51,922 nucleotides of DNA, taken from contig CAYZUS010000010.1 of assembly GCA_964481885.1 (NCBI GenBank), forward strand, positions 20,426 to 72,347. Direction: 5' to 3'. This document shows positions 484 to 29,597 of this stretch, in pieces (position 1 is the stretch's first letter; each line of letters begins with the position of its first letter). This DNA is from an uncultured Actinomycetota bacterium (GTDB taxonomy: Bacteria > Actinomycetota > Humimicrobiia > Humimicrobiales > Humimicrobiaceae). Made by a program: the position numbers and the translations under genes. The notes below the pieces were generated by a model. The model was not told where the DNA came from, did no database searches, and saw only the letters and a program-made list of their open reading frames with translations.

Positions 484-1551
484 ATGTCAGAAAATGACGG
501 CCGTACTGAACCGGCAACAGGTAAAAAGCGATCAGAAGAAAGAAAAAAAGGGCATGTATGCAAAACAGCGGAGCTTAGCCCTGCCCTTATTCTCTTGATG
601 AGTTTTGTATTATTAAACGGTTATGGAAAAAATATTTTTGAAAGCCTTAAAGAATATATGTTTCAGACCATCAACAGCCTTCCATACAAAACCTTTTCTT
701 TTGAATATTTAAATGAGGTGGCGACCAACACAATGCTGGTCTTTGCCAAAGCTACGGCTCCTTTTCTGCTTGTAATAGTTTTTATCGGACTTGTTGCCAA
801 CATAGCCCAGGTCAAATGGCTGGTATCATTTAAATATATGGATGATTGGGCACAGAAATTTAATGTGGCAAAAGGGATAAAAAATATGTTTTCCCTAAAT
901 ATTTTTGTAAAACTTGCAAAAGATATTGTCAAGGTCTCGCTTGTAATACTTGTAGGATATAACCTTATAAAAAACAATCTTCTGCAGATTATTCTTTTTA
1001 CAGGCCAGGAACCTTCAGTGGTGATGGAACAGCTTGGCAAATTTATTTATCAGTTTGGATCAAGGGCCGCTTTTATACTTCTGGCGATAGCTTTTGTTGA
1101 TTATTTCTACCAGAAAAAACAGTTTGAAAAAAGCATAATGATGACCAAACAGGAAGTAAAAGATGAGTTTAAGAGCCAGGAAGGTGACCCGCTGGTCAAA
1201 TCAACGATCCGAGGCAAACAGCGTGCGCTTGCAAGAAAGAGAATGATGCAGGCAATCCCAACAGCCGATGTTGTTATTACGAACCCGACAACATTTGCTG
1301 TTGCATTAAAGTATGAGGCTGACAGTGAAGCGCCTGTAGTCGTTGCCAAGGGCATCAGGCTCGTTGCAGAGAAAATAAAAGAAATAGCAATTGAAAATGG
1401 AATACCGGTTGTGGAAAACGTTTTTGTTGCGCAGACTTTATACTGGCAGGTGGAGATAGGCCAGAAGGTTCCGCCATTTTTATATTATGCTGTTGCGGAA
1501 ATCCTGGCATATGTCTATAAGATGAAAAATAATTTTTCGATGGCACATTAA
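484..1551 (+). CDS. flhB: Flagellar type III export switch protein FlhB
   Basis: 355 aa with the N-terminal 'GRTEPATGKKRSEERKKG' box, 4 TM segments and a C-terminal domain with the autocleavage region 'VVITNPTTFAVALKY' (variant of NPTH). Confidence 0.95.
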   Translation: MSENDGRTEPATGKKRSEERKKGHVCKTAELSPALILLMSFVLLNGYGKNIFESLKEYMFQTINSLPYKTFSFEYLNEVATNTMLVFAKATAPFLLVIVFIGLVANIAQVKWLVSFKYMDDWAQKFNVAKGIKNMFSLNIFVKLAKDIVKVSLVILVGYNLIKNNLLQIILFTGQEPSVVMEQLGKFIYQFGSRAAFILLAIAFVDYFYQKKQFEKSIMMTKQEVKDEFKSQEGDPLVKSTIRGKQRALARKRMMQAIPTADVVITNPTTFAVALKYEADSEAPVVVAKGIRLVAEKIKEIAIENGIPVVENVFVAQTLYWQVEIGQKVPPFLYYAVAEILAYVYKMKNNFSMAH

Positions 1552-1587
1552 ATAGTTTTTAAAAAATAGAAAGCGGCAAAGAAGTAT

Positions 1588-3816: not shown

Positions 3817-4152
3817 ATGGCAGAAAATCCTATTAAGAACTTCCAGGATGATGAGGATGATAATAACGATATGGAAGAAAATAATGAAAACGCTGCCGGG
3901 GCAAATAAGCCGGGAGAATTTAACGCGCCCAATGATACGGACAGCCCGCCGTCAAAACCGAGTGTCAAAATAAATATGGTGAATTTTAAATGGCACTGGG
4001 TGGCCGTGTTTGCAGTGGCCGTCATTGTGATTTATCTAAGCCTTCTAAATGGCGTATCCCTCGAAACTGCTCTGATAAGGGCCCTGTACAGTACTGCAAT
4101 TTTCTGGGTTATTGCCGAGGTCGTAGACTGGGTAATTCATAAGATGAAATAG
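3817..4152 (+). CDS. Hypothetical small membrane protein (acidic disordered N-terminus, two C-terminal hydrophobic helices)
   Basis: 111-aa ORF with RBS-like GAGGTG 7 nt upstream of the ATG. I recognise no family. Confidence 0.5.
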   Translation: MAENPIKNFQDDEDDNNDMEENNENAAGANKPGEFNAPNDTDSPPSKPSVKINMVNFKWHWVAVFAVAVIVIYLSLLNGVSLETALIRALYSTAIFWVIAEVVDWVIHKMK

Positions 4153-4253: not shown

Positions 4254-5117
4254 TTACTCTTTTTTATATGCCAAGGTCCCGGGAAATAAGAATAATTTAA
4301 AATCAGGTGTCACTCCGTGCAGCGACTCCTCTTCGCCAAGGAACAGAAATCCTCCAGGCTTTAGTAAAGAATAAAGGTTTTCGGCCAACAAAGTCTTATA
4401 CTGTTTTTCATAAAAAAGCATTATATTCTTGCAAAATATTAAATCATAAAGATTTAATGATTCTTTTCTGCATGGGCTGAGAAAATCAAAATTTAAAAAT
4501 GAGACAGCATTCAAATAATCATCTTTTATTCTGTATTCAGTTTCACTGCTTTTTAAAAAATATTTTTTTACATCGGCGGCATCCATATTCTGGAGATATT
4601 TTTTATTATAACTGACATCGGATGGTTTTTCTGCAGCGTTTACATCCAGATTACAAGCCTGTATCTGAAAGGACCAGTCGGGTTTTTTATTTCGGAAGGC
4701 ATTTTCCAAGGCAAAAAATACAGAGTAAGACTGAATAAGACTGCTTTTCCCGACTACCAAAGTGCTGATTATTTTGTCTTTCTGCCTTGAATAATTTTCG
4801 AAAATATCCGGAAGTATTTCACTTATTACAGCATCTGTCTGATCAGGAGAAGATTTGAAATAATATTCATTGAAATCCAGTATATCAAACAGGCTGTTTT
4901 TTTCACTTTCATATTCGAAATCTCTGCTGAGAAGGTAGAGATAATCGTTTATTGCTTTTAGGTTCAGCTGCTCCATTCTCTCGTGAAGTTTTGCTGTTAC
5001 TGATTCTTTTTTATCAAGATTAATGAAAATGCCATGTTCCTCATATAAATAGTTCCTGAATCCAAAGAAAAGTTTATCATTGTATTCCGAAATATCGTTA
5101 TTAATGTCTATACTCAT
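4254..5117 (-). CDS. CheR-like methyltransferase-fold protein with a degenerate SAM-binding loop
   Basis: CheR N-terminal helical pattern and C-terminal 'YDLIFCKNIMLFY...LLKPGGFLFLGEEESL'. The canonical 'WxAGCSTGEEAYS' is replaced by 'LVVGKSSLIQSYS'. Confidence 0.7.
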   Translation of the reverse strand: MSIDINNDISEYNDKLFFGFRNYLYEEHGIFINLDKKESVTAKLHERMEQLNLKAINDYLYLLSRDFEYESEKNSLFDILDFNEYYFKSSPDQTDAVISEILPDIFENYSRQKDKIISTLVVGKSSLIQSYSVFFALENAFRNKKPDWSFQIQACNLDVNAAEKPSDVSYNKKYLQNMDAADVKKYFLKSSETEYRIKDDYLNAVSFLNFDFLSPCRKESLNLYDLIFCKNIMLFYEKQYKTLLAENLYSLLKPGGFLFLGEEESLHGVTPDFKLFLFPGTLAYKKE

Positions 5118-5311
5118 CTGCTTATTCCTGTTTGACTATTAAAATGTTTAATGAAAAATTAAATGGTCCAAATAACCGCACGATCTCCGTTGACCTTAAT
5201 CAACTCCGGCAAACCCAACCACCTCAACCAAATCATACAATTCCACCGAAACAAACAATCCAATTAATATTATAAAAAATGTATTCAGAAAACTTCCCAA
5301 AGAAGCATTGC

Positions 5312-6205
5312 TTAAAAAAACTTTGACGAATACATTTTTATTACGTCATGAGAGTTTTTTAAATCATCGTCCACCTCAAAAAATATTTTTTCGATATCTA
5401 TTTTTTTAAAGTAAGGTGAGCTCTTTTCCAGATTCATCCAACCCTGATTATTTTTAATATCCATTCCTTTGCTGGATTGGACGACTCCAATTTTTTTGGC
5501 ATTAGTAAGAAGATCTGCAAGTTTTATTATTGATATCATGCTGGTGTCATTGATATCTGTTAACTCGCTGTGATGATATTTTATGGCATCTGATATATTA
5601 TCTGGGAAATGCCATATTTTTGACAGCATCCCGCCTATCTCTGCATGGTCTATTCCCAATATCTGTCTTTCAGCCTCATAGAAGAAAATATTCTTTTTCC
5701 TTGTTTCTTTAATAACTGCCAGAAACTCAACATGCGCATACTGGTCAAGGCAAATCTTGCCAATATCATGTAAAAGCCCGCATATAAATGGGCTTGAACT
5801 GAATTCGATATTTAAAACCTGCGCAAGCTTATTTGCAGTAATTGCAGTCATTATTGAATGTTTCAGATAGTCTGCTTTGTCAAAAGCATATTCTCCGTCC
5901 TGGGGAAACAGCTTAAAAAGCGACATCATGAAAACTATGTTTTTGATCTCTCTAAGTCCAAGTATTATCAGTGCGGAATCAAGTGAGCCGACATTCTTTT
6001 TCAGGCCGTAAAATGCCGAGTTGGCCACTTTCAATATACCTGCTGTAATAGAAGGATCTCTTGAGACAAGGTCAGATATCTGTTTCATTGACCTTATATC
6101 ATTTTCAGACATGCCCATAATTTCAAAAGCAATATCCGGCAGTATAGGCAGCGAGTCGATTTCAAGCATTTTTTCAAGTATTCTTTGTCTTGTGTCTCTT
6201 ATCAT
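5312..6205 (-). CDS. HDOD domain signalling protein
   Basis: 'LPILPDIAFEIMGMSENDIRSMKQISDLVSRDPSITAGILKVANSAFYGL' plus the HD-like 'GLLHDIGK' is typical of the HDOD family. Confidence 0.8.
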   Translation of the reverse strand: MIRDTRQRILEKMLEIDSLPILPDIAFEIMGMSENDIRSMKQISDLVSRDPSITAGILKVANSAFYGLKKNVGSLDSALIILGLREIKNIVFMMSLFKLFPQDGEYAFDKADYLKHSIMTAITANKLAQVLNIEFSSSPFICGLLHDIGKICLDQYAHVEFLAVIKETRKKNIFFYEAERQILGIDHAEIGGMLSKIWHFPDNISDAIKYHHSELTDINDTSMISIIKLADLLTNAKKIGVVQSSKGMDIKNNQGWMNLEKSSPYFKKIDIEKIFFEVDDDLKNSHDVIKMYSSKFF

Positions 6206-6253
6206 TTTAGTTTAAAAAATCATGTTTATTAAAGTTTATTAAAACATAAAATG

Positions 6254-6721
6254 TTATTTTACTTTATAGCTGAATTCAATATAAAATTTTCCGCAATCGA
6301 CCTCAAAAGGTATTACAATAGGCTCCATCTCGTTTAGAGGCGGTATTTCAAAATCTTTTCCCTGTATAACCAGGGGAAGAGATAAAGCCATTTCCTCACC
6401 GGTGATAAGCGCTATCTCATTTTTCATTCCGCCGGCTACCATATTGGATATTTCGCCGATGGCGTCGTTTACATCTCCATCAATTTCTTTATATTCCATT
6501 CCAAGCATGTTTGAAGTTACTTTTAACGCAACAGCCTTTTCAAAATGCGACAAAACAGACATTGTAACCTTACCGGTCAAACCCATTATACCTGTTATTT
6601 CACTGCGCAGTTTTATTTTGTCTTTATTAAAAGGAAGGCTGTCCTTAGGGTCCATCATTATCATTGTACCAAAAACATCTTTGACTATCTTTATGATTGC
6701 TGCTATATATTTTTCTTTCAT
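6254..6721 (-). CDS. cheX: CheY-P phosphatase CheX
   Basis: 155 aa. 'ALKVTSNMLGMEYKEIDGDVNDAIGEISNMVAGGMK' closely parallels the Thermotoga/Borrelia CheX ExxN active-site helix. Confidence 0.88.
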   Translation of the reverse strand: MKEKYIAAIIKIVKDVFGTMIMMDPKDSLPFNKDKIKLRSEITGIMGLTGKVTMSVLSHFEKAVALKVTSNMLGMEYKEIDGDVNDAIGEISNMVAGGMKNEIALITGEEMALSLPLVIQGKDFEIPPLNEMEPIVIPFEVDCGKFYIEFSYKVK

Positions 6722-6859
6722 ACGGCTCCCAACATATTTTATGCCTCTGCATTTTTTTATTTTTTTTGCGTCTCAGGATATCTTTACTTTATTCCAATAT
6801 AAAAAGTTTAGTTAGTATTACAATTTTATGTTTTATCCTTTGCGTTTTATACTATTTTT

Positions 6860-7237
6860 TTATGACCCAAAACATCTGTCTATTTTTTTCTCAAGAGCTA
6901 TGGATGTGAAGGGTTTTGTAATATAGTTATCCACACCATTATCCATAGCTTCCTCCATTTTGCCGGTACTTCCCTCAGTTGTTATCATCATTATAACAAT
7001 CTTTTTTTTCGTTCTTATGGCTCTTACTTTTTTTACAAATTCAAGTCCGTCAAGGTTTGGCATGTTCCAGTCACTTAAGATCAGGTCAGTTTTACCTGGA
7101 TTAAATACTTTTAACCCCTCCACTCCGTCTCCTGCTTCAGTTATGGTGGCATCAGCATACTTGCCCTCTTCAATTGCCCGTTTTATTATTTTTCGCATTA
7201 CTGCAGAATCATCAACCACAAGTATATTGAGCCCCAT
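6860..7237 (-). CDS. cheY: Chemotaxis response regulator CheY
   Basis: 125-aa single REC domain: 'VVDDS', 'SDWNMPNLDG', 'ITKPF'. Confidence 0.9.
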   Translation of the reverse strand: MGLNILVVDDSAVMRKIIKRAIEEGKYADATITEAGDGVEGLKVFNPGKTDLILSDWNMPNLDGLEFVKKVRAIRTKKKIVIMMITTEGSTGKMEEAMDNGVDNYITKPFTSIALEKKIDRCFGS

Positions 7238-7338: not shown

Positions 7339-7781
7339 ATTATTTTTTTCAATAATATATTCAAATATATTTTAACATAATTAATTATTATTTCAAATTA
7401 TCCCGATATATTTTCAATATTTGGAATTACTGCCATATAAGCTGAATCTGAGCCATTGGGCAGATTTTTCAGCAGTAATTTACCTGATATTATATGTATA
7501 GTTGCTTTGGAAACAGTTCAGGCAATCGGGCATTGCCTTGCACCGATAATGCTCAGGAAACGTTTTTGAAAGGATAATATTGGTAATATTGGCATTGTTA
7601 TTTTGGAAAACAAGCTGTTGGTCAGGTATGGATATATTGAGATTTTAGTTGCAGAATGGCCCACAGTTAATCTTAAGAATTCAATAAAGATTTAAATATT
7701 GATTCAAAAATATCTTTAATAAATGATGAATAATATTTATAAACATTTTTACAAATTTTATTTTACTATTTTAAATAAAAT

Positions 7782-7789
7782 GCCGATAA
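7782..7789 (+). promoter_or_regulatory. Sigma-28-type -10 box GCCGATAA upstream of the chemoreceptor operon
   Basis: 8/8 match to the -10 consensus, 83 nt upstream of the ATG at 7872. No convincing TAAA -35 at the expected spacing. Confidence 0.4.
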
Positions 7790-7871
7790 ATTCTATAAGT
7801 TAAATACATTTATGTGTTTAAGATGTTTCTATGAAAAATAGAAAAAATAAAAAAGAGAAAAAGGAGTCGAA

Positions 7872-9809
7872 ATGGCAATTACAGCTGATAGAAAATTAGC
7901 CAGGCCGGGATCACAGTCCATGGATCTTGCAAAAAAGGAAGACCTGACTGAGAGAAGGGACGTAGCCAAAAAGCTTGCCCAGGAAAAAACAAAAGCCAGA
8001 ACGCTTGCCAAGACACAGCAGATAGCTGAAAGGCTCGCAGCAGCAACAGAACAGTCTGCTTCAAGCATCCAGGAAATAAGGGCAAGTGCAGAAGAGCTTG
8101 TTTCAGCAGTGGACCAGGTTTCCAATGCAGTGGAACAGGTTTTAAGTGAAGTCGAACAGGCAGAGGTTGTTATTAAAGCAGGAAACGTGGCAGCCAAAGG
8201 CGCTGATGTAAAAGCATCATCTGCTGCAAATTATGCTGAAACCATTGCCAAACTGCTAAACAAGAATATTGCAGATATTAATGTGGCAATTGAAGGTGTG
8301 CAAAAAGCTGCGCAGTTAAATGCGGAAGCTGTTAAAAGTGGTAATGAACTTATAAAACAGGGTGAAGAAATCGGTGAAATAGTCCAGTCTGTAACCCAGA
8401 TTGCTGACCAGACAAACCTGTTGGCACTAAATGCTGCAATAGAAGCAGCGCGTGCAGGTGAGCATGGCCGTGGTTTTGCTGTTGTTGCTGATGAAGTAAG
8501 AAACCTTGCAGAGGTCAGCGAAAAATCAGCAAGACAGATAAACGAGCTGGTTGAAAAAGTCCAGAACAGCATAAAAGAAGCTGCAGAAAAGGTTACAAAA
8601 ACCGGAAACAATGCCCAGAAAGCAACCACGGAGGCTGGAGAAATTGCATTAGGTCTCGGTACAATAATTGCTGCAGTAAATGACCTTCAGTCAGTTGCAA
8701 AAGAAGTGGCCACACAGTGCAGAGAAATGAGCGCCCTTATGGGTGATCTTACTTCTACTACAGGCTCAATAACTAAAAATACTGAGGAAGTAAGCACAGC
8801 CATAAAGCAAATTGATGCCTCACTCAGGGAGCAGACAAAAGCATTTGCAGATATTGAAAAAGCATCTGATGAGCTGGTTGAAATGGCTGACAGGATCAAG
8901 ACCTCCACGACCGATAACAAAGCCGCTGAAGAAATAGCTGCATCATCTGAAGAACTTTCTGCAACAATAGAAGAGACAAATTCAAGCATGGAACAGATTG
9001 TCACAGGCATTACCCAGGTGGCAAAAGGCGCAAGTGGTGTTGCCGAAGGAACTGATACTGCAAACGAACAGGCAAAGACAATAGGTACCCAGACAAATTT
9101 TGTAAGAGAAAGCGCCGAAAAATTTGCAAAAGTTTTGCAGGCCAATGAGACTGATTACAGCAAAGCAAAAGATGCATTTACAGAAATTGTCAAACAGGTC
9201 GGTGATATGGGAAATGACAACCTCACAGTAGCAACAGAACTTGCAACACTTGTTTCCGATTTAAGAAATATTTTAAAGATTGTTGATAATATAACAATGG
9301 TAGCTGTACAAACCAACCTTCTTGCCGTAAATGGTTCAATTGAAGCTGCAAGGGCAGGAGAATACGGCCGTGGATTTTCAGTTGTAGCCGCAGATGTTAG
9401 GACCCTGGCAAATGAATCTTCCGAAGCTGCTGACAAGATCCAGGCTATGATACAGAATGTTGAAACACAGATAATCCAGGTTACAGACGATGTAAGAAAA
9501 GCCGGAGATTTGGCAATTGAACAGCAGAAAAGAGGAGTTGTAATTCTTGAAGATGCTGAAGTAATAATAAAAACTTCGGGTGAAGCAACCGGTGTTGCCA
9601 ATGAGGTTGAAGCCGCAGCAGTCGAACAGGTAAAAAGAGTCGAGCAGGTAAGCAAAGCAACCGAACAGATAGCAGCCGCAGCAGAAGAGGCATCATCCGC
9701 AGTAGAGCAGTCAACCAAGGCAGCAGATGAACAGAAACGTGCCATGAATGAAATAGCTGAGGCAGTTGAAGAGATAGCCGGAATAGCTGACGAACTCCAG
9801 GCTCTGTAG
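7872..9809 (+). CDS. Soluble methyl-accepting chemotaxis protein with two tandem signalling (MA) domains
   Basis: AAGGAG RBS and no TM segments. There are two hairpin-tip motifs: '[35 protein letters not shown]' and '[36 protein letters not shown]'. Confidence 0.9.
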
Positions 9810-9873
9810 AATTTTTAGCTAGACTAAAGATTCCTGTAATAATTTTATTTAATTATTGAATTGGAGTATTTAT

Positions 9874-11967
9874 ATGATTGAGACAATGGAAGAAATAAAA
9901 ACTGAAAAGCAGGTGAAAAACGTCGCTAAGAAGGAAAGGGAGCTGGTCATATTTAAACTCGGAGACGAAGAATTCGGTGTAAGTATTGAATACGTCAAAG
10001 AGATTGTGAAACTGCCGGAAATTACCCTGATTCCTAACAGCATAGATTACATAGCAGGTATATGTAATCTAAGAGGCAGCGTATTGCCTGTAATTGATAC
10101 AAGGATAAGGTTTAACCTCTCAAAAAAAGAAACAACCGCACAGACAAGGCTGCTGGTTGTCGATTTGGGTGGGGAAACAACGGGCCTGATTGTTGATGCC
10201 GTATCACAGGTATTAAGCATCAGTGAGGATATCGTGGACCCGGCTCCGAGAGCGGCGGCGGGCATTGATAAAGATTTCCTTGATGGTGTCGTAAAGCTTA
10301 ATGACGGGAAAAGGCTCGTTTTGCTTCTAAATCTTACAGAAGTATTTTCGGCCCAGACTGAAAAAGCCAAAGTAAAAGGAAAAACAAGCTATGGGATGAA
10401 AAACGAGACAGAAGAGTCCAATCTGGCAAAGCAGGCCATGGACGAAGAGCAGCTTGTATCATTTCTTTTATCTGATGAGGAATATGCTTTTGATATTGAC
10501 AGTGTAAGGGAAATATTAAGGGTCATAGAAATAACGGAAGTTCCTAATGTTCCAAATTATGTACTCGGCCTTTTAAACATAAGGGACCAGATACTGCCAA
10601 TACTTGACTTAAGGACAATGCTTTCAATCAAGCATCTCGGTAAAGAATTATATGATGTTCTTGATGAAGTAAAAACTGTTCATAATGAATGGGTATCTTT
10701 GCTTGAACAATGTGTCAATGACGGCACTGGCTTTTCCGGCCAGAAAGATCCTCACTTTTGCAGGCTCGGAATGTGGATAGAAAGCTTTAAGAGCAATAAC
10801 AATAACTTAACAGCAATGGTGGCCAAGCTTGTCGAACCGCATAATGCGCTCCATAGTTATTCAGACGTGGTGACAGCCGAAGCGGCAAAATCAAAAGAGG
10901 GCGCACTCAAGATGATAAATGACAAAGTTATCCCGCTGAAAAACAACATACTGGATACATTTACAAAGATTGTTGAGAGTTTTTATTCTACAATCAAAGA
11001 CGAACAGAGGATACTTGTTATAGAATCAGCCGGTACGACCATAGGACTTGTTGTTGACCATGTAAATGAAGTAGTAAGGATACCAAAAAATATTATTGAT
11101 GAGACCCCTTCAATAATTGCTTCTTCAGGCAAGGAGATAAGCGGCGTTGCAAAGATGAACGGCGGCAAAAGAATAATCATGATAATGGATGAAAAAACAC
11201 TTTTTAAAGGTGATAAACAAATGTTAAACGAGATGGCCAAAGGCAGTTCAGGATCGGATAAGAATGTTTCAGAAGCAAAAAAAGATCTGGACGAGGATCA
11301 GTTCGTGACATTTAAAATTGGAAATGAGGAGTATGGCGTACAGATAATGAAGGTTCAGGAAATAAACCGCCTTTCAGAAATCACCTCTATTCCAAAAGCT
11401 CCATATTTTATTGATGGAGTTACCAATTTAAGAGGCAATGTCATCCCTATCATTGATATAAGAAAAAGATTTGCCATGGATATCAAAACAGACGATTACC
11501 GAACAAGAATTATTGTAGTCGATATCGCAGGAAAAAAGACGGGCCTTAAAGTCGATATGGTAAACGAAGTACTGCGCCTTTACAGAAGTGATATTGAAGA
11601 AGCACCGGGCATCATTTCAACTAATGTTGATTCTGATTTCATTGAAGGAATAGGGAAAATCGATAATGGTAAGAGGATGATAATACTTTTAAATGTTGAA
11701 AAGATCCTTACCAATAAGGAAATCGATGCTTTAAAGTCAATGGACAAGAGTGATTCATCAGAGAAAAATGTAAAACCTCAGGCAAAAAAAGAAGAGCCGG
11801 TGGAAGAAGTAAAACAAAAAAGCCAGGCATTAGAAATTTCTGAGGAGAAATCTGAAGAACCGGAAGCAATAGCAGAACCTGTAAAAGCTGTAAGCGCAAA
11901 AAACGGTGCAAAGAAAAAAGCTGCAGATGACGATGACAAGGATACGGGTTTTACAATGTCTGAATAG
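9874..11967 (+). CDS. Multi-domain CheW scaffold (three CheW domains, a CZB-like insertion in the second, K/E-rich tail)
   Basis: Three 'xFxLGxEEYGVxIxxVxEI...NLRGxVxPxIDxR' units. I prefer the ATG at 9874 (GGAG 8 nt upstream) over the TTG at 9856 in the ORF track. Confidence 0.85.
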   Translation: MIETMEEIKTEKQVKNVAKKERELVIFKLGDEEFGVSIEYVKEIVKLPEITLIPNSIDYIAGICNLRGSVLPVIDTRIRFNLSKKETTAQTRLLVVDLGGETTGLIVDAVSQVLSISEDIVDPAPRAAAGIDKDFLDGVVKLNDGKRLVLLLNLTEVFSAQTEKAKVKGKTSYGMKNETEESNLAKQAMDEEQLVSFLLSDEEYAFDIDSVREILRVIEITEVPNVPNYVLGLLNIRDQILPILDLRTMLSIKHLGKELYDVLDEVKTVHNEWVSLLEQCVNDGTGFSGQKDPHFCRLGMWIESFKSNNNNLTAMVAKLVEPHNALHSYSDVVTAEAAKSKEGALKMINDKVIPLKNNILDTFTKIVESFYSTIKDEQRILVIESAGTTIGLVVDHVNEVVRIPKNIIDETPSIIASSGKEISGVAKMNGGKRIIMIMDEKTLFKGDKQMLNEMAKGSSGSDKNVSEAKKDLDEDQFVTFKIGNEEYGVQIMKVQEINRLSEITSIPKAPYFIDGVTNLRGNVIPIIDIRKRFAMDIKTDDYRTRIIVVDIAGKKTGLKVDMVNEVLRLYRSDIEEAPGIISTNVDSDFIEGIGKIDNGKRMIILLNVEKILTNKEIDALKSMDKSDSSEKNVKPQAKKEEPVEEVKQKSQALEISEEKSEEPEAIAEPVKAVSAKNGAKKKAADDDDKDTGFTMSE

Positions 11968-12076: not shown

Positions 12077-13192
12077 ATGTATACAAAACAAATAAATGTA
12101 TTGATTTGTGATGACTCTGCATTGATGCGGAAGATTTTAAGATCAATAATAGAAGAAGATCCTGGGCTTGTTGTTATCGGGACAGCAAGGGATGGGTTGG
12201 ATGCTGTAGAAAAAGCAAGAGACCTCAAACCTGATGTAATAACGATGGATATCAACATGCCCAGGCAGGACGGCATCACTTCGATGCAGCAAATAGTTTC
12301 TGAAGGACTTGCTCCTGTGATTATGCTTTCGTCACTTACCCAGGAAGGCGCCATGGCGACTTTTGAAGCGTTGGAACTGGGAGCTTTTGATTATGTTGCA
12401 AAACCCGGCGGTACGATTTCTACAAACTTAGATGTGATATCAGACGAATTAAGATCAAAGATAAAGGCTGCTGCCACTTCAGATGTTTTAAGAAAGTTAA
12501 GAAAGAGCACAGACTATTATGAAAGCGTAAGAAACAGATCTGACAGACAACTGAAAAAAGAAAAAGACAGAAGCGCTCTTTCAAGAATTTTAACACAGAG
12601 AAAAGGAGCAGGTCTTGGATATAAGGCGGTAGCAATAGGCATCTCCACAGGCGGGCCTAAAACAATTTTAAATGTACTGCCTTATCTGCCGAAAGATTTA
12701 AATGCTGCAATATTTCTGGTGCAGCATATGCCGCCTAATTTTACGGCAACATTTGCTGCAAGGATCAATACTGCATCTGAAATGGTGTGTGTGGAAGCTG
12801 AAAATGGCATGCTGGTAAAACCGGGCGTCATATATCTGGCAAGAGGCGGTCGGCACCTCACCCTTTTTAAAAAAAGTACCGGAGAAATAATAATAAGAAC
12901 ACCTGACAGGCCTGAGCATCTTTTTGTACCTTCGGTGGATGTTATGATGCAGTCAGTACTGTCAACTTACAAGGCGGACACAGTGGGAGTTATCATGACA
13001 GGAATGGGTCATGACGGAGCAGCGCAGATGGCCAAAATAAAGGAGGCAGACGGAATTACGATCGCTGAAAGTGAGGAAAGCGCAATAGTTTTCGGGATGC
13101 CTGCTGAAGCAATCAAGCTTGGCTGTATTGACAGTATTCTGCCATCATGGAAGATAGCTGATGAAATAATAAGATCCGTGAAAAGTAACTAA
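12077..13192 (+). CDS. cheB: Chemotaxis methylesterase/deamidase CheB (REC + esterase)
   Basis: REC 'LICDDS...MDINMPRQDG', with esterase catalytic motifs 'GISTGGP', 'VQHMP' and 'GMGHDGA'. Confidence 0.95.
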   Translation: MYTKQINVLICDDSALMRKILRSIIEEDPGLVVIGTARDGLDAVEKARDLKPDVITMDINMPRQDGITSMQQIVSEGLAPVIMLSSLTQEGAMATFEALELGAFDYVAKPGGTISTNLDVISDELRSKIKAAATSDVLRKLRKSTDYYESVRNRSDRQLKKEKDRSALSRILTQRKGAGLGYKAVAIGISTGGPKTILNVLPYLPKDLNAAIFLVQHMPPNFTATFAARINTASEMVCVEAENGMLVKPGVIYLARGGRHLTLFKKSTGEIIIRTPDRPEHLFVPSVDVMMQSVLSTYKADTVGVIMTGMGHDGAAQMAKIKEADGITIAESEESAIVFGMPAEAIKLGCIDSILPSWKIADEIIRSVKSN

Positions 13193-13207: not shown

Positions 13208-14293
13208 ATGGACATAGAAAAATTAAGAGAAAAACTACTATCTTCAGAAAAATCAGATGTTTCTGAAGCGCTGGATATAATATATGAAGATGAAATTATC
13301 GAGCTTGCAGACGTGATGGTCGATGTTTTAAAGAGGGAGACCTCCCGTGCCATGAGGGAAAAAATACTTGTTACGATCGGCAAATTATTTAACAAGCTTG
13401 GTTCTTTTAACAAACTTGGCTTTGAAACAATAAAACAGATGTTTTTTGCTGAGGATGCTTTTATAAGAAACGGAATAATCTCACTTATCAAAAGAAGTGA
13501 CGGGACGGATTACTCACACTTAAGAGAATTATCAAGATGCAACGACAAGGACATCAGAAAATTTGTAATCGATGCTTTAAGTAATGACAACTGTGCCCAA
13601 TCCATTGAAATAATACATGAGCTTTTAACAGATGAAGATATCAATATCAGGATAACTTCAGTTGATTACCTGGGGGATTTCAAGACCGAGCAGTATTGCG
13701 ATGAAATTACAGATATCTTTTTAAATACAGATAACCCGATGCTGAAAATATCCTGCCTTGAATCTGTTGCAAAAATCGGGAAAAAACCCAAAAAATTTGA
13801 CCTGGTTTATAAGGAGCTTACTGAAAAACCGAATAACCTGATGATATTTTCGTTTTTAAAAATTCTGGGAGCTTTCGGAGGAGAGGAATCTTTTTCCTTC
13901 CTTGAAAATATATTACTGGATGAGAAAACCTTTTTTTTGAAGAATGTAATTGATGCAGTTGAGTCAATTCTGGTAAATAGTGATTTAAAAATGCCGGACA
14001 ATTTGAAAAATGCCTTTATAAAAAGAGTTGATACTGCATCAAGCAATGACAAATATGAGATTATGAAACTTCTGGCTAAAGATGATGGTGACGAGATGTC
14101 GCAGAATGCCAGAGAAAACCTTAAAAGTGAAGATGAAATGATACTGCTTTCGGCAATTGAGATACTTGCAGATACCGGCAGTCTTTGCGACATTGACAAA
14201 CTTGAAGATGTGGCCTCTGAGTCTGAGTCTGATGATATTCTTGAAGCTATAGGCGACGCCGTGATGAAAATTAAAGCAAGATTAAAACAATAA
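13208..14293 (+). CDS. HEAT/PBS-lyase-like repeat protein embedded in the che operon
   Basis: Repeated ~30-aa helical units ('DKDIRKFVIDALSN', 'DEDINIRITSVDYLGD', 'NPMLKISCLESVAKIG'). AAGGA RBS. Confidence 0.6.
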   Translation: MDIEKLREKLLSSEKSDVSEALDIIYEDEIIELADVMVDVLKRETSRAMREKILVTIGKLFNKLGSFNKLGFETIKQMFFAEDAFIRNGIISLIKRSDGTDYSHLRELSRCNDKDIRKFVIDALSNDNCAQSIEIIHELLTDEDINIRITSVDYLGDFKTEQYCDEITDIFLNTDNPMLKISCLESVAKIGKKPKKFDLVYKELTEKPNNLMIFSFLKILGAFGGEESFSFLENILLDEKTFFLKNVIDAVESILVNSDLKMPDNLKNAFIKRVDTASSNDKYEIMKLLAKDDGDEMSQNARENLKSEDEMILLSAIEILADTGSLCDIDKLEDVASESESDDILEAIGDAVMKIKARLKQ

Positions 14294-14317: not shown

Positions 14318-15157
14318 ATGGAAGAAATAAGTTTTTCGGAATTTATAAATTTAAGAAATTTTATTTATGAGAGTACCGGTATTTTTTTCGAAGAGAAAAA
14401 AATATATTTTATAAAAAAAAGGGTTGAAAAAAGGCTCATTGAATTAAACCTTGATTCCGCTGCTACTTACCTGAGGATGCTAAAGACTTCCAGGGAAAGT
14501 TCAAAAGAGCTGCAGACTTTGACAAATCTGCTTACAACCAATGAGACATATTTTTTCAGGGAATACGATCAGCTTGCAGTATTTGGAGAACACTGCCTTA
14601 CTGAGATTATTGAGGACAAAAAGAAGAAATTTGTCAGGAATTTAAATATCTGGTGCGCCGGCTGCTCAACCGGAGAAGAGGCTTATACATTATCAATAAT
14701 ACTCCAGGAAATGCTTCCCAATTTAACTTATTGGAACATAATTATTTATGCAACGGACATAGACACTGAGGTCCTTCAAAAGGCAAAAGTCGGGCTGTAT
14801 TCGGACCGTTCCGTAAAGGACGTGCCGCAGGAATATCTGGAGAAGTATTTTACCAGTGAAGGGGACGAGTGGAAAGTCTCAGAACAGGTCAAAAAATATG
14901 TAAAATTTTTAAATATAAATCTTATAGACGACTTTAAAATGAGGGCATTTAAAAGTATTGATTTTATATTCTGCAGGAATGTTCTTATATATTTTGATGA
15001 AGCTTCAAGAAAGCGTGTTGTCGGTAATTTTTTTGAAAGTTTGAATAAGGGCGGATATATTTTTCTTGGACATTCTGAGTCAGTAAGCAGGATATCAACT
15101 GCATTTACAACAAAAAGAAAAGGTGATCTGATTGTTTATCAAAAGACTGAGGTGTAA
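14318..15157 (+). CDS. cheR: Chemotaxis methyltransferase CheR
   Basis: 'NETYFFRE', 'IWCAGCSTGEEAYTLSIIL', 'ATDID', 'FIFCRNVLIYFD', 'LNKGGYIFLGHSES'. Confidence 0.93.
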   Translation: MEEISFSEFINLRNFIYESTGIFFEEKKIYFIKKRVEKRLIELNLDSAATYLRMLKTSRESSKELQTLTNLLTTNETYFFREYDQLAVFGEHCLTEIIEDKKKKFVRNLNIWCAGCSTGEEAYTLSIILQEMLPNLTYWNIIIYATDIDTEVLQKAKVGLYSDRSVKDVPQEYLEKYFTSEGDEWKVSEQVKKYVKFLNINLIDDFKMRAFKSIDFIFCRNVLIYFDEASRKRVVGNFFESLNKGGYIFLGHSESVSRISTAFTTKRKGDLIVYQKTEV

Positions 15158-15162: not shown

Positions 15163-15531
15163 ATGAAAAAAGTTTTAATTTGTGATGATTCTGAAATGGT
15201 GAGAAATTTTCACTATTACATATTAAAAACTGCAGGGTTTGAAGTCATATCCGCCATAGATGGCGCGGATGGCCTGGAGAAGCTTTGGCTCAACAAAGAT
15301 ATCGGGCTTGTAATAACAGATATAAATATGCCAAATATGGACGGATATTCCATGATTGAAAAAATAAGGATGGAAGATGAATTTGAGGATATACCCATCA
15401 TTATTATTTCCACAGAGGATCAGCTTAAAGACAAACAAAAAGGGTATGATGCAGGTGCCAATATTTATATAGTCAAGCCTACTGCTCCTGAACAGCTGGT
15501 TGAAAGTGTAAAGCTTTTAATGGAAGAATAG
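15163..15531 (+). CDS. cheY: Chemotaxis response regulator CheY (second copy)
   Basis: 122-aa REC: 'LICDDS', 'TDINMPNMDG', 'IVKPT'. GAGGTG RBS. Confidence 0.9.
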   Translation: MKKVLICDDSEMVRNFHYYILKTAGFEVISAIDGADGLEKLWLNKDIGLVITDINMPNMDGYSMIEKIRMEDEFEDIPIIIISTEDQLKDKQKGYDAGANIYIVKPTAPEQLVESVKLLMEE

Positions 15532-15785: not shown

Positions 15786-18374
15786 ATGGAACTTAATGTA
15801 GACAAAGGCGATCTGGAAATTTTAGCAGGATTTATTGAAGAATCCATTGAACATTTTGAAGGTATAGAAGAAAAGATACTTCAGCTGGAGCAATCAAGAG
15901 ACAGCGAGCTTATAAACAGTATTTTCAGGTCAGTTCACACAGTGAAAGGAACCTCCTCATTTCTGGGCCTGAAAGAAATCGAGTATTTCAGCCATAAGCT
16001 TGAAACGCTTCTTGATGAAGTCCGAAATAACCGCATCGAGATTAACTCTGACATTATAGACATACTTCTTGAGGGTGCCGATATCCTTTTTAAAATGATA
16101 CTTGAATTAAAGGCGGCACTTAACAGCCCGGACTCACAAACTGATAAGGAAGGCAAAGTTGTACTGAATATAAAAGAGGTTGATTTTTCTGAATCGGAAA
16201 CAAAGATAAAAGAACTGCTGGCAAGTACGGAAAAAACACTTGAAACTCCGGCAGCAGCAAAAGAAAAAGTGGCAGCCGAACCACCAAAAGAAAAAACATC
16301 TGTCAAATTTGAATTCGATAAAAGCCTTAAAACCGATTATATACAGGAAGCCGAAGAGCATGTTACAAATATAGAAGAACTGCTTTTAAAACTGGAGACA
16401 AATAATAAAGACTTTGAATTGTACAACGACCTGTTCAGGGCGCTGCACAGTATCAAAGGAAATACGGACCTCGTAATTTCGACAATAACTGATGAGGAGC
16501 AAAAGAAAAGCCACCCCCTAAACTACATGAGGGAGATTGCGCATAAAGCCGAAAGCATTATTCAGCTAAAAAGAGACAAAAAAAATCCTATAAATTTACC
16601 GGAATTTGACCTGTTTTTTTCAGCCTGTGATGCTTTAAAAATACTTTTGGGTGAATTTAAAAATGGTAAAGGTTTAAACTTTAATCCTGTGGCGGTCATA
16701 GAGAATTTAAAAAGCGCCAGTGAAAGCAAGAAAGATCCAAAGGGCAAAAACGATAATGCAATTCTGGAGAATGTTTTTAACAGCGCACAGTCAGCTACAG
16801 AATTTGCAGTGGCAAATACAATAATTCAATGCATAGAAGCATTTGCAGACGGGATAGATGGCCTTAATGATATCGAGAAGATGGACAAATCCCAGAAAAA
16901 AATCAGCCGAAGTTTAAAGACTCTTTTAAACCTCGGTAAAAAAATATCTCATACTCTTCTAATTGAGACGAGTGAAAAATCAATCGAGCTGATTAACATT
17001 TTTTCAGATCCTGAATCAGATGATGTTGAAAAAAACCGTATCATAACAGAGCTTGCTAATAATCTTGACACATTAAAAGAAAAAGGTGAAAGAAGAAAAG
17101 CTTCAGTAACTGCTCAAAAAGTTGCTGGCGAGCAGGAAGATGCTGAGAAGGGTCCTGATAAAAAAACAGAGTTAACAACCATAAAGGTACCGCTTGAAAG
17201 ACTCGATAAAATGATGAACCTTGTCGGTGAGCTCGTGGTATTTAAGAATAATTTCCAGTATGTTTACAAAGAGCTTTCTGTCATAGATAATATCGGATCC
17301 ATTAATAAAAAAATAAAAAACATTGGAGATTCATTAAGCAGAGTTTCAGAAGAACTTCAGATTACCATCATGTCGGCCAGGATGATCCCTGTTAACAGTG
17401 TGTTTTCCAAGTTCCCCAGAATGGTAAGGGACCTTTCCAAGAAAATGAACAAGAAAATAAATCTTGTAATAGAAGGCGAGGAAACAGAGCTTGACAAAAC
17501 AGTCATAGAAGCAATAGGCGACCCAATGGTCCACCTTATAAGAAATTGCGTCGATCATGGCATAGAACTGCCGGCTGATCGCCAAAACTGTGGCAAACCT
17601 GAAGAAGGGACCATCAGGCTGAAAGCGTATAATTTTGGCCAAAGCGTAATAATAGAAATAATTGATGACGGGAAAGGTGTTAACCCCGAAGTCATAAGGA
17701 AGAAAGTACTGGAAAAGGGCCTGCTTTCTGAAGAAGTTTTAAACAAGATGTCGGAAGGCGATATTAAAAATCTTATCTTCCTGCCGGGATTTTCAACTGC
17801 TGCGGCTGTAACTGAAGTGTCGGGCAGGGGCGTAGGTATGGATGTGGTTAAAACCAACATTGAAAAAATAGGCGGTTCTGCAAGGCTTGAAAGCGAATTG
17901 GGCGTTGGAACGACAATTACCCTTGTACTGCCACTGACTCTTTCAATAAGCAGGGGACTAAATGTGGAGTGCTGCGGCCAGAATTTCTATCTCCCACTGG
18001 ATTATGTAATAGAGACTGTAAAAATCCCTGTTGACAGTATAGTAAAACACAAGGATATGGAAATCATTATGATAAGGGACAAGCTCGTGGCATTTTTCAG
18101 GCTGGAAAAATTGCTTGGCCTGGCAAGAAATAATGGAAATAATAAGGACGAGGCAGCTTCGGGCAGTAAAAAAAGTAATAATTTAAATGTCGTAATGCTG
18201 GAAATAAATAATAACACAATCGCAATGGAAGTGGACAGAGTTCTTGATGAAAGCAGCTTTATGGTAAAGCCATTAACAGGCATCGTCAGTAATATTGAAG
18301 TTGCTTCCGGGGCAGTTATTAGTGCAAAAGGTGATCTTATACTTGTACTTAATCCCCCATTATTATTTGCCTAA
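15786..18374 (+). CDS. cheA: Chemotaxis histidine kinase CheA with two HPt (P1) domains
   Basis: Two HPt boxes ('FRSVHTVKGTSSFLG' and 'FRALHSIKGNTDLV'). Also has P3 'IKVPLERLDKMMNLVGELV', P4 'HLIRNCVDHGIE...DDGKGV...GRGVGMDVV' and a C-terminal CheW-like P5. Confidence 0.95.
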   Translation: MELNVDKGDLEILAGFIEESIEHFEGIEEKILQLEQSRDSELINSIFRSVHTVKGTSSFLGLKEIEYFSHKLETLLDEVRNNRIEINSDIIDILLEGADILFKMILELKAALNSPDSQTDKEGKVVLNIKEVDFSESETKIKELLASTEKTLETPAAAKEKVAAEPPKEKTSVKFEFDKSLKTDYIQEAEEHVTNIEELLLKLETNNKDFELYNDLFRALHSIKGNTDLVISTITDEEQKKSHPLNYMREIAHKAESIIQLKRDKKNPINLPEFDLFFSACDALKILLGEFKNGKGLNFNPVAVIENLKSASESKKDPKGKNDNAILENVFNSAQSATEFAVANTIIQCIEAFADGIDGLNDIEKMDKSQKKISRSLKTLLNLGKKISHTLLIETSEKSIELINIFSDPESDDVEKNRIITELANNLDTLKEKGERRKASVTAQKVAGEQEDAEKGPDKKTELTTIKVPLERLDKMMNLVGELVVFKNNFQYVYKELSVIDNIGSINKKIKNIGDSLSRVSEELQITIMSARMIPVNSVFSKFPRMVRDLSKKMNKKINLVIEGEETELDKTVIEAIGDPMVHLIRNCVDHGIELPADRQNCGKPEEGTIRLKAYNFGQSVIIEIIDDGKGVNPEVIRKKVLEKGLLSEEVLNKMSEGDIKNLIFLPGFSTAAAVTEVSGRGVGMDVVKTNIEKIGGSARLESELGVGTTITLVLPLTLSISRGLNVECCGQNFYLPLDYVIETVKIPVDSIVKHKDMEIIMIRDKLVAFFRLEKLLGLARNNGNNKDEAASGSKKSNNLNVVMLEINNNTIAMEVDRVLDESSFMVKPLTGIVSNIEVASGAVISAKGDLILVLNPPLLFA

Positions 18375-18534: not shown

Positions 18535-18650
18535 ATGATACCCACAGACTTTGTCCTTTTAATTATTTCCAAACTATTGTATTTATACTAAGATATAATT
18601 CAAAAATATATTTCAAAATTGTTTTCAAAACCCGATTGCATTTTGTTTTT

Positions 18651-27802: not shown

Positions 27803-27868
27803 TTAACAAATTCATGTTGAATAATTTTTTTTTGAAGTTGTAAATTTTAGTTTCCTGTCAGGCAGAAA

Positions 27869-29209: not shown

Positions 29210-29464
29210 TATTTTAATTCCTTTTTAGTCTTTTGAAAAATTTCAAATAAATTATAATTTAAAAAAGCTGAAATTATAACAACTATTTTTTAAAGTGTAA
29301 CAGCCATCTGGAAATATCCTGTTCCCGGCAAAGTTGAAATGTCCGCTTTAAATATTTTGCCTGCAGATAATCCTCTGCCTTTTATTTTATCACGCAGGAA
29401 GTGGGAACGCTCTGATTCTGCATCAACCCTGTGCTTGCTTTGGTTAAGATATTATTGTTTCTGA

Positions 29465-29512: not shown

Positions 29513-29597
29513 CTGTATTAGAAAACCCTGCTGCTGCAGTTAAGGTGTAACTGCTGCATAAAACCTTAATCCCTCAGTCAAAATGTTATGTATCTGC

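Follow-up and report, generated by a model that had tools for sequence, protein, structure and literature searches.

A probable DosM ortholog, with two signalling hairpins in one soluble chain, in an F9-class chemosensory operon of an uncultured freshwater anaerobe

The 645-aa protein encoded by the dosM-like gene of the window (that is, of the whole 51,922-nt stretch of DNA analysed, from an uncultured Actinomycetota bacterium) is quite probably the DosM ortholog of a freshwater anaerobe and would serve as scaffold receptor in a chemosensory system of the F9 class. A preliminary description, made from the letters of the DNA, had likened it to DosM of Vibrio cholerae, and the likeness has held up: the protein has two signalling domains and neither a transmembrane segment nor a sensor, its gene adjoins that of a triple-CheW adaptor (CheW3) in an operon with the F9 gene order, and it is homologous over its full length to a listed DosM. 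Two subsidiary points fared less well. DosM of V. cholerae had been taken for the sole characterised precedent, but Mcp2 of Rhodospirillum centenum has been characterised genetically; and the architecture is less rare than was implied, because it is catalogued in about 2% of species. The DosM family has already been described, and the protein of the window is a divergent but ordinary member of it. The contribution, of modest significance, is that the DosM/F9 family now takes in an uncultured freshwater anaerobe and that transcription of the operon is seen in nature.

Scanned as a whole, the protein matches the Pfam family MCPsignal in two stretches (E 9.7e-68). Each half, when scanned separately, passes the curated cut-off of 34.6 bits by itself: aa 1-345 with 136.6 bits (E 1e-39) and aa 346-645 with 105.2 bits (E 4e-30). 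The halves resemble each other far beyond chance (31% identity over ~294 aa, E 5e-25). The chain holds two complete signalling hairpins, ancient and diverged. There is no hydrophobic or transmembrane segment in the protein (the maximum 19-residue Kyte-Doolittle mean is 1.46), and no Pfam or NCBIfam domain other than MCPsignal, sensor domains included, reaches its cut-off; weak matches to Syntaxin, ATG17, Rad50, SMC and ZorA lie far under theirs and are coiled-coil noise. In these respects the first account was accurate: the reading frame with its ATG start, the pair of tip motifs at the positions given in the table, and the lack of a hydrophobic segment and of a recognisable ligand-binding domain are all as it had them, and the Ala/Glu-rich arms, put there at ~130-150 aa, measure ~147-148 aa each (17% Ala and 12% Glu in the protein).

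Homologs of the protein number in the thousands in the databases. The best 120 are 635-697 aa long, with query coverage of 96-100%, and beyond the lineage of the window identity reaches no more than 41-42%. One full-length homolog, WP_062408673.1 of Paenibacillus naphthalenovorans (39% identity, 99% query coverage, E 2.2e-103), is tabulated together with 77 other DosM homologs by Mo et al. 2022 (PLoS Genet, S6 Table, PMC9321776); its tips are likewise 300 residues apart and its C-arm likewise 148 residues long, and its operon has a slightly different order, [DosMW3B.YRA.W3]. (A technical note on sampling: the metagenome scan based on the DosM alignment had generic MCP tip peptides as its queries, and its matches are mostly single-domain MCPs; only L085-L088 and L092 among them are DosM-like.)

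Variation in length within the family is confined to the N-terminus, before tip 1; the remainder has a fixed geometry. Tip-to-tip spacing is 300 residues in all 34 aligned homologs in which both tips match the motif, and also in seven DosM-like ORFs from other loci (three of these seven proteins are already among the 34), while the C-arm after tip 2 is exactly 148 aa in 35 of 36 sequences. Methylation-type sites, matched by the pattern [ASTG]2-x2-[EQ]2-x2-[ASTG]2, lie 137 residues ahead of each tip; E60 in the first hairpin and E360, E361, E367 and E368 in the second are nearly invariant among homologs. An exact 300-residue spacing would fit a strut or spacer of fixed length. One can think of its retention across phyla as a "molecular ruler" constraint, which sharpens a numerical discrepancy: a straight 300-residue helix measures ~44 nm, as against the 35 nm reported for the separation of the V. 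cholerae baseplates, a point that counts against the strut.

The AF2 model of the monomer (mean pLDDT 89.4, pTM 0.64) consists of two long helical elements on either side of a single non-helical break, S345-D348. Foldseek superimposes one hairpin of the model, which of the two being unspecified, on the cytoplasmic domain of TM1143 from Thermotoga maritima (PDB 2ch7, a 44H receptor): the whole model matches 2ch7_A over 308 columns (308 of 309 residues) with TMt 0.88 and rmsd 2.7 A. Query residues 73-290 (protein aa 112-329, in hairpin 1) align at equal length with residues 71-288 of the 2ch7 chain, whereas the second hairpin aligns with heptad-sized gaps; the repeat unit of the DosM-like protein measures 300 aa, as against 308. 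The hairpins may accordingly be called 44H-like, a designation based on likeness of fold and length to 2ch7 rather than on class HMMs; VC1403, the V. cholerae DosM, and F9 receptors are classed as 44H. TM1143 itself has a single hairpin, a membrane anchor and a periplasmic sensor, in contrast to the two hairpins in series of the soluble protein considered here.

Conservation peaks at both tips (0.93-1.0) and, next, in three segments, aa 46-60, 346-360 and 631-645 (0.80-0.88). The conserved junction, presumably at mid-rod, has three parts: 1) The basic N-terminal helix, in which R29, A36, K39 and Q49 are invariant, carries a net charge of +6 over aa 28-47 (family mean +6.25). 2) The helix break has the form K-x-S-T-x-D; K343 and K350, at its flanks, are invariant, and conservation is 90% or higher for S345, T346 and D347. 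3) The conserved acidic C-terminus has a net charge of -6 over aa 626-645. The junction is an obvious target for mutagenesis. The second tip has a signature of its own, ending in [YF]GRGFSVVA, that differs from that of tip 1 and is specific to the family, being kept across orthologs. Positions of all features are collected in the table.

Table. Features of the dosM-like gene, its product and the surrounding operon (nucleotide positions in the window; aa, amino acids of the respective protein)
Feature	Position	Strand	Basis
sigma-28 (FliA) -10-box-like GCCGATAA, possible promoter	7782..7789	+	exact match, 82 nt 5' of dosM ATG
dosM-like gene, 645-aa soluble chemoreceptor with two signalling domains	7872..9809	+	ATG start; Pfam, homologs
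Disordered N-terminus (predicted), aa 1-21	7872..7934	+	pLDDT <50 for aa 1-22
Basic N-terminal helix, aa 22-49, extending past hairpin 1; proposed junction splint	7935..8018	+	AF2 helix from residue 22
Signalling hairpin 1 (44H-like), aa 50-344	8019..8903	+	equal-length alignment to TM1143 (2ch7)
Two overlapping methylation-consensus matches, Glx pairs aa 60-61 and 67-68, hairpin 1 N-arm	8037..8087	+	pattern match
Tip 1, aa 180-214, E197; near-canonical kinase-control tip	8409..8513	+	conservation 0.97-1.0, 36 homologs
Inter-hairpin linker, aa 345-348 (S-T-T-D), helix-N-cap-like	8904..8915	+	DSSP break, pLDDT dip to 68
Signalling hairpin 2, aa 349-645	8916..9806	+	MCPsignal 105.2 bits by itself
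Two methylation-consensus matches, aa 360-361 and 367-368	8937..8987	+	exactly 300 aa past first pairs
Tip 2, aa 480-515, E497	9309..9416	+	conservation 0.93-0.96 across homologs
Methylation-consensus match, aa 605-606, hairpin 2 C-arm	9672..9701	+	pattern match
Triple-CheW adaptor (CheW3) with nested CZB, 697 aa	9874..11967	+	Pfam, AF2, Foldseek
CZB (chemoreceptor zinc-binding) helical domain, aa 255-377, inside CheW domain 2	10636..11004	+	Pfam, Foldseek
cheB (receiver + methylesterase)	12077..13192	+	Pfam
HEAT-repeat protein, conserved non-che gene ('.') of F9 operons	13208..14293	+	HEAT_2 E 3e-18
cheR	14318..15157	+	Pfam
cheY	15163..15531	+	Pfam
cheA, two Hpt (P1) domains	15786..18374	+	Pfam

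The genes of the operon follow one another in the order DosM, CheW3, CheB, HEAT, CheR, CheY, CheA, with DosM first, and this order recurs in four distant related loci, the position of the HEAT gene included. Judged by gene content and order, it corresponds to the published order of the F9 class (Wuichet and Zhulin 2010), [DosMW3B.RYA], which is tabulated, for V. cholerae among others, in the S6 Table of Mo et al. 2022 (PMC9321776). The CheA of the window has Hpt domains scoring 55.0 bits (aa 11-100) and 30.7 bits (from ~aa 183) against a cut-off of 24.6, and H-kinase_dim, HATPase_c and CheW domains besides. No partner receptor is encoded in the window.

In V. cholerae, according to published accounts of the cryo-tomography (Briegel et al. 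2016, as summarised in PMC7534058 and PMC9321776), DosM reaches from one baseplate to the other, and the array depends on it; the F9 system of that organism is summarised there as having no phenotype under standard conditions. Tandem MCP signalling domains with neither transmembrane segment nor sensor are common to V. cholerae DosM, as outlined in those accounts, and the window protein, and so are the position of the gene directly 5' of one for a triple CheW and the gene order, DosM-W3-B-.-R-Y-A; the comparison is one of architecture and gene order. The differences are several. The host there is a gamma-proteobacterium and here an uncultured freshwater anaerobe; VC1402 is described in reviews only as a concatenated triple CheW, whereas the CheW3 of the window carries a nested CZB domain; two Hpt domains set the window CheA apart; and the array, imaged in V. 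cholerae, is a prediction for the present system. Membrane-free arrays with two baseplates and hexagonal packing are also formed by TlpC/TlpT of Rhodobacter sphaeroides and, in vitro, by fragments of Tar (Briegel et al. 2014, eLife), but those sandwiches consist of single-hairpin receptors that abut head to head and lack a covalent strut, in contrast to the DosM type, in which both layers are held by one polypeptide. The Che2 system of R. centenum shares the F9 class, the order [DosMW3B.RYA] and the tripartite CheW; in the published summaries (Berleman and Bauer 2005; PMC6943060, PMC2890560) it controls lateral flagellum biosynthesis rather than taxis, and deletion of mcp2 is recorded there as causing hyper-flagellation.

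By analogy with V. cholerae DosM, the protein would form dimers, each a long rod of four helices that ends on both sides in a kinase-control tip; each tip would join trimers of dimers and plug into a CheA/CheW3 baseplate. Two hexagonal lattices of receptors would in this way be stapled together by the rod as a sandwich array free of any membrane. Array, dimer and rod topology are thus extrapolated from the homolog of one organism. The basic N-terminal helix would probably bridge the junction at mid-rod, where it would rest on two acidic stretches, the C-terminal helix and the beginning of hairpin 2, and make the junction stiffer. CheR and CheB of the operon would have the Glu pairs close to the junction as their substrates.

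If the chain has two hairpins joined by a break, why should it not simply fold at the break? The single-chain pseudo-dimer, raised as an alternative in the preliminary description, would turn at S345-D348 and pack hairpin 2 onto hairpin 1, giving a monomeric four-helix bundle of ~22 nm whose two tips, unlike in sequence, would lie together at the same end; the bundle would act as a heterodimer-like receptor in an ordinary single-layer lattice. The conserved linker, four non-helical residues resembling a helix cap, would suit such a turn; halves that are only 31% identical, each with a conserved tip signature of its own, are what heterotypic packing predicts; and a folded form would do away with the discrepancy of 44 against 35 nm. 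The monomer model may itself be folded back, since a rod of 44 nm with a hinge would be expected to have a pTM lower than 0.64. That fold-back, however, is the expected artefact of modelling an obligate dimer as a monomer, its contacts being equal to those of an antiparallel extended dimer. Two further points count against the folded form: the basic helix (aa 22-47) would jut past the bundle without a partner, whereas in the extended form it is level with the conserved acidic C-terminus; and in V. cholerae, cryo-tomography with fitting puts DosM across both baseplates, and its deletion abolishes the array. We regard the pseudo-dimer as improbable, and less favoured than the DosM strut.

Somewhat less credit still is due to an asymmetric receptor, in which only tip 1 couples to CheA/CheW3, the protein sits in one baseplate only, and hairpin 2 has been re-purposed for regulation or for docking of the HEAT protein, CheR/CheB or another partner. 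Tip 2 does carry family-conserved substitutions (NAA to NGS, H to Y/F, GFAVVA to GFSVVA and EVR to D[VI]R), the MCPsignal score of the C-terminal half is the lower of the two (105 and 137 bits), and a HEAT protein of unknown role is always present in the operon. Yet tip 2 is conserved much like tip 1 (0.93-0.96 against 0.97-1.0), the two hairpins have arms of exactly matching length, and methylation-type sites precede both tips at an equal offset. Tip 2 also keeps the N, E, R and F residues that serve in Tsr for trimer and CheW contacts. Tomography of V. cholerae, moreover, has both ends of DosM in baseplates.

That two neighbouring MCP genes were fused by misassembly or a sequencing frameshift, the error that might have undone the preliminary description, is refuted as far as sequence data reach and has next to no probability left, with no supporting evidence found and with much against it: four metatranscriptome assemblies cover the ORF in full, and a DNA contig from an independent run spans 7554-9937, all with no indels or joints; an ENA contig (L083) encodes a gapless 645-aa ortholog of 95% amino acid identity; length and architecture are the same in the best 120 homologs; and the inter-hairpin junction motif is itself conserved. 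The gene is under purifying selection (dS 0.43 and dN/dS 0.05 against the L083 ortholog), and an AGGAG lies 5-9 nt 5' of its ATG.

To return to the DosM strut: from where would a sandwich array of this kind receive its input? Members of the DosM family are without a sensory domain in 98% of cases (PMC9321776), and since the DosM of the window has none, its input must come from elsewhere. Candidates would be other soluble receptors (none is encoded in the window) or the CZB domain within CheW3, which could supply input to a sensor-less DosM. CheW3, for which ATG 9874 is taken as the start (the mechanical ORF begins at TTG 9856), matches Pfam CheW in four stretches (E 4e-100) as well as CZB. Its AF2 model has beta-rich CheW domains at aa 22-158, 191-249 + 379-443, and 474-606, and the best Foldseek matches of the model are CheW structures. 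The CZB insert, whose pLDDT of 85-93 is the highest in the model, scores 35.4 bits alone against a Pfam cut-off of 29.4. It contains the motifs HNEW, FCRLGMW and PHNALH, with H270, C296 (of CRLGMW), H323 and H327 as candidate zinc ligands in a 3His/1Cys pattern. That pattern is shared with CheW-CZB proteins and with the CZB domains of DgcZ and TlpD, and the fold is nearest to that of DgcZ, which provides the first non-CheW Foldseek match of CheW3 (3t9o_B, TMt 0.68). (Another technical note: phmmer of PDB sequences against the insert matched none of the solved CZB domains, the similarity being too low; the assignment is based on Pfam, the ligand motifs and Foldseek.) CheW3 can on these grounds be classed as a CheW-CZB adaptor with a zinc site that is predicted to be intact.

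CheW-CZB proteins make up 1.4% of CZB proteins (Perkins et al. 2021, mBio). In the CZB literature we found none that had been characterised experimentally, and we did not find a CZB nested in the middle domain of an F9 triple CheW described in the literature. The insert is absent from the CheW3 of Desulfosporosinus; among the 120 best homologs of CheW3, about one in four has a CZB that Pfam detects; and several others of those aligned keep the insert but have lost the zinc ligands. Retention of ligand-less inserts suggests, from the alignments, that the CZB-type insert is there for structure, sensing being an optional extra. Where the ligands are present, a CZB of the type that senses zinc, redox state or HOCl would sit in the baseplate ring that touches the receptor tips and the P5 domain of CheA, and a ligand-driven shift of the four-helix insert could change kinase control directly. 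The fullest form of the proposal, namely that in this lineage the DosM array is signalled through its scaffold, movement of the CZB insert altering kinase control, and that DosM is purely a 300-residue ruler, we hold only tentatively and think rather doubtful. The source of input to sensor-less F9 arrays is a published question, to which the large CheW3 subfamily with a CZB-type domain nested in CheW domain 2 offers a candidate answer.

dosM is transcribed in situ, as is evident from RNA contigs of four metatranscriptomes. These begin at 7816-7821 in three of the four runs and at 7863 in the fourth. The GCCGATAA box upstream would be at most a weak candidate for the dosM promoter: boxes of this type occur six times in the window where 1.25 are expected, and the sigma-28 assignment is weak because no TAAA -35 box stands at the canonical spacing of 13-17 nt from it. 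Neither the sequence 3' of cheW3 nor position 12273, where the RNA contigs share their 3' end, showed a terminator, and no Rfam family reaches its gathering score anywhere in the window. The operon adjoins flhB and flhA; this adjacency and the possible sigma-28-type box are the only hints here at a flagellar output like that of R. centenum. The FlhA of the window is at most 51% identical to that of any species representative.

Two signalling domains in one soluble polypeptide had been read from the sequence of the dosM-like gene, and domain searches agree. Pfam finds MCPsignal in two stretches of the whole protein (E 9.7e-68), and the halves, scanned separately, both pass the curated cut-off of 34.6 bits, at 136.6 bits (aa 1-345) and 105.2 bits (aa 346-645). 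The tip motifs lie exactly where the preliminary description placed them (aa 180-214 and aa 480-515), with E197 and E497 as tip glutamates. Half aligns with half at 31% identity across about 294 residues (E 5e-25): the gene was duplicated internally long ago, not recently. The absence of a hydrophobic segment and of a recognisable sensor domain is likewise borne out: the top 19-residue window has a mean Kyte-Doolittle value of 1.46, and nothing besides MCPsignal reaches threshold in Pfam or NCBIfam. (Matches to Syntaxin, ATG17, Rad50, SMC and ZorA, far under their cut-offs, are coiled-coil noise.)

Might the gene be two ORFs joined by an assembly error, as the preliminary description allowed? 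Three lines of evidence argue that it is not: 1) Many public runs from freshwater and lakes contain the dosM stretch; 7554-9937 is covered by a single DNA contig from an independent run, and contigs of four metatranscriptomes span the whole of dosM and run on into cheB, with no indels and no joints. 2) The ortholog on an ENA contig (L083) has the same 645 aa and aligns gaplessly at 95% aa identity (90.7% at the DNA level); dS of 0.43 and dN/dS of 0.05 indicate strong purifying selection on an intact frame. 3) The best 120 database relatives are full-length (635-697 aa, query coverage 96-100%).

Features of the chemosensory locus and of the DosM protein (nucleotide positions in the window; aa, residues of DosM)
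Feature	Position	Strand	Remark
Box GCCGATAA	3510-3517	+	upstream of ORF 3817-4152, same orientation
Second, more divergent CheR	4254-5117	-	
HDOD protein	5312-6205	-	
CheX phosphatase	6254-6721	-	
CheY-like receiver	6860-7237	-	
Box GCCGATAA	7782-7789	+	sigma-28-type -10 consensus; upstream of dosM, same orientation
dosM-like ORF, 645 aa	7872-9809	+	ATG start, AGGAG before ATG
Disordered N-terminus	aa 1-21		AlphaFold2
Long helical elements	aa 22-344 and aa 349-644		AlphaFold2
Sole non-helical break, S-T-T-D	aa 345-348		AlphaFold2
Methylation-consensus Glx pairs	aa 60/67 and aa 360/367		each 137 and 130 residues ahead of own tip
Methylation-consensus match	aa 605		
Triple-CheW adaptor (CheW3)	9874-11967	+	Pfam
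CZB insert within second CheW domain	10636-11004	+	
CheB	12077-13192		downstream of dosM
HEAT-repeat protein	13208-14293		downstream of dosM
CheR	14318-15157		downstream of dosM
CheY	15163-15531		downstream of dosM
CheA	15786-18374	+	two Hpt (P1) domains, aa 11-100 and from about aa 183 of CheA, both over Pfam cut-off
Box GCCGATAA	21374-21381	-	upstream of HD-GYP-type gene 20369-21211, same orientation

The hallmark of F9-class chemosensory systems is the pairing of tandem signalling domains (DosM) with a concatenated triple CheW, named CheW3 (PMC9321776). In Mo et al. (2022, PMC9321776), 64 of 2781 species have a full F9 cluster, and 78 DosM homologs are tabulated, 98% of them without a sensor; the commonest gene order is [DosMW3B.RYA], and that of V. 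cholerae is [DosMW3B.RYA.YM]. The window operon has the commonest order, gene for gene. The order DosM-CheW(multi)-CheB-HEAT-CheR-CheY-CheA is repeated at distant homologs: on a JGI metagenome contig, in Desulfosporosinus hippei, in a Pseudomonadota MAG and at the related locus L084. One database homolog (P0086, WP_062408673.1; 39% identity, 99% query coverage) is the DosM of Paenibacillus naphthalenovorans in Mo et al. 2022 (PMC9321776), and the heptad class of V. cholerae DosM (VC1403) and the F9 receptors is 44H. Operon order, homology to a listed DosM and a 44H-like fold thus support the original DosM-like reading: the protein is a further member of an already described family. V. cholerae DosM is not, as had been supposed, its only characterised precedent: Che2 of Rhodospirillum centenum, also of the F9 class, has been studied, and PMC6943060 and PMC2890560 describe a tripartite CheW, a hyper-flagellated mcp2 deletion and control of flagellum biosynthesis. 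A divergently transcribed accessory set (4254-7237, minus strand) sits between flhBA (484-3675) and the F9 operon, and the second Hpt domain of CheA sits elsewhere than the extra region of Vibrionales CheA-F9, which lies between P2 and P3 (2026 preprint).

AlphaFold2, given 36 homologs, models the protein as all-helical and with confidence (mean pLDDT 89.4, pTM 0.64). Foldseek superimposes 2ch7_A, the cytoplasmic domain of the Thermotoga maritima 44H receptor TM1143, onto one model hairpin over 308/309 residues (TMt 0.88, rmsd 2.7 A). By sequence, hairpin 1 aligns with 2ch7_A at equal length and hairpin 2 with gaps of heptad size, and because of these gaps the class is named no more than "44H-like". 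The consensus methylation-site glutamates are almost invariant in the alignment of 36 homologs; these putative sites fit the presence of cheR and cheB in the same operon.

How would such a protein be deployed? In V. cholerae, according to PMC7534058 and PMC9321776, cryo-tomography shows DosM to be a drawn-out rod that has a signalling domain in each of two CheA/CheW3 baseplates; the array requires DosM, which occupies alternate trimers of dimers. On grounds of homology, an assembly of this type is the best-supported mechanism for the window protein: its homodimer would form a rod with a kinase-control tip at either end, the rod would staple one receptor lattice to another in a sandwich that has no membrane, and CheR and CheB would modify sites near the middle of the rod. 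A straight 300-residue helix measures ~44 nm, which exceeds the 35 nm reported between V. cholerae baseplates, and the figures disagree. (In 40H membrane arrays the membrane-to-baseplate distance is 25 nm, placing the baseplate near the tips.) For a 44-nm rod with a hinge, such a pTM would be higher than expected, and the AlphaFold2 monomer model may therefore be folded back, as would befit a single chain that packs hairpin 2 on hairpin 1 as a pseudo-dimer. Fold-back is, however, a likely outcome when an obligate dimer is modelled as a monomer; its contacts are those of the antiparallel extended dimer, and it would leave the conserved basic helix (aa 22-47) without a partner. We regard the pseudo-dimer as improbable.

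Two points are worth passing on, and the first is the invariant 300-residue ruler of DosM. The family alignment (36 homologs, 37-42% identity to the window protein) shows hardly any variation at either tip: tip 1 is near-canonical, and tip 2 has its own conserved signature ending [FY]GRGFSVVA. The E-to-E spacing of the tips is exactly 300 residues in 34/34 sequences in which both match the pattern, 35 of the 36 have an arm of exactly 148 residues beyond tip 2, and all variation in length lies ahead of tip 1. The spacing recurs in seven DosM-like ORFs from fetched loci, three of which (L081, L082, L083) encode proteins already among the 34; at L084, the sole exception, it is 402 residues because a segment resembling the chemoreceptor zinc-binding domain (CZB) is inserted in hairpin 2. 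(The L084 protein, 7732-9978 of that locus and 748 aa long, has this insert, with C-A-F-G-A-W and H-D-T-V-H, in the N-arm of the hairpin; the L084 CheW3, 10001-11839, likewise bears a CZB.)

Besides the tips, conservation peaks at aa 46-60, aa 346-360 and aa 631-645, and K343, S345, T346, D347 and K350 are invariant or nearly so. Net charge is +6 for the helix aa 28-47 (family mean +6.25), -6 for the last 20 residues (family mean -5.7) and -5 for aa 349-372. If the hairpins are collinear, these segments are all level with one another along the axis, at 150-175 residues from tip 1, and the basic N-terminal helix would cross the break against two acidic helices, as a proposed splint. Alternatively, the helix aa 22-47 (7935-8012) is a candidate for nucleoid binding: conserved and strongly basic, it recalls the basic N-terminus of FrzCD, which binds DNA, the nucleoid serving as array scaffold.

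The second point is a CZB nested in CheW3. Pfam reports four CheW stretches and a CZB; alignment and the AlphaFold2 model resolve three CheW domains, with a helical insert (aa 255-377) interrupting the second, and nowhere is the model more confident than in this insert. Scanned by itself, the insert reaches 35.4 bits against CZB (cut-off 29.4), its nearest solved fold after CheW structures is 3t9o_B, the CZB of DgcZ (TMt 0.68), and H270, C296, H323 and H327, in the pattern H / CxLGxW / HxxxH, are candidate zinc ligands. The best 120 CheW3 homologs (563-701 aa, the window protein having 697; at least 86% query coverage save P0233, with 34%) come, where sources are named, mostly from Desulfobacterota, plus KSB1 and the FCB group. 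All 20 such homologs aligned against an insert-less Desulfosporosinus CheW3 (486 aa) have the insert; a CZB match is recorded in 30 of the 120, and several homologs with no such match (e.g., P0124, P0127, P0182) have the ligand Cys and His replaced. "CheW-CZB" is a catalogued, uncharacterised architecture making up 1.4% of CZB proteins (Perkins et al. 2021, mBio), and Mo et al. report CZB in just two DosM homologs (PMC9321776); we came across no account of a CZB that sits inside the CheW3 of an F9 operon. The source of input to sensor-less F9 arrays is posed as a question in PMC9321776, which makes the nested CZB the most interesting lead here: hypothetically, it could be that source. Some of the "W4" (quadruple CheW) adaptors placed in two F9 operons (Mo et al., Supplement S6 of PMC9321776) may be split W3, since the divided domain 2 yields four CheW stretches in the window protein.

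Word depth in four metatranscriptome assemblies is 12.6-15.6 for the dosM-cheW3 contig vs 0-5 for flanking che genes; it is 3-5 times that of cheB-to-cheA and the upstream genes. Since the depth of a contig reflects expression poorly and DNA can be present in libraries of this kind, the values are read as evidence of transcription alone. The contig starts at 7816-7821 in three of four runs (7863 in the fourth) and ends at 12273/12274 in three of four, inside cheB, with no terminator-like site at that end. The excess could be a stoichiometric surplus of the two scaffold proteins, or an assembly break. The box GCCGATAA occurs six times in the window, where 1.25 would be expected. Three of the copies are found upstream of genes and in their orientation, and at these three, the dosM copy included, a canonical TAAA -35 box is absent.

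The lineage is poorly sampled, FlhA being at most 51% identical to that of any species-representative genome. Directly 3' of cheA is a gene (18636-20315, plus strand) for a 559-aa protein with Ser/Thr protein kinase and DnaJ (J) domains. Anaerobe-type genes lie at 26027-43591: GTP-dependent PEPCK, a RuBisCO-like large subunit, a 1049-aa NuoF-like/GltD-like fusion adjoining an [FeFe]-hydrogenase, and a module for a [NiFe]-hydrogenase that looks like group 3.
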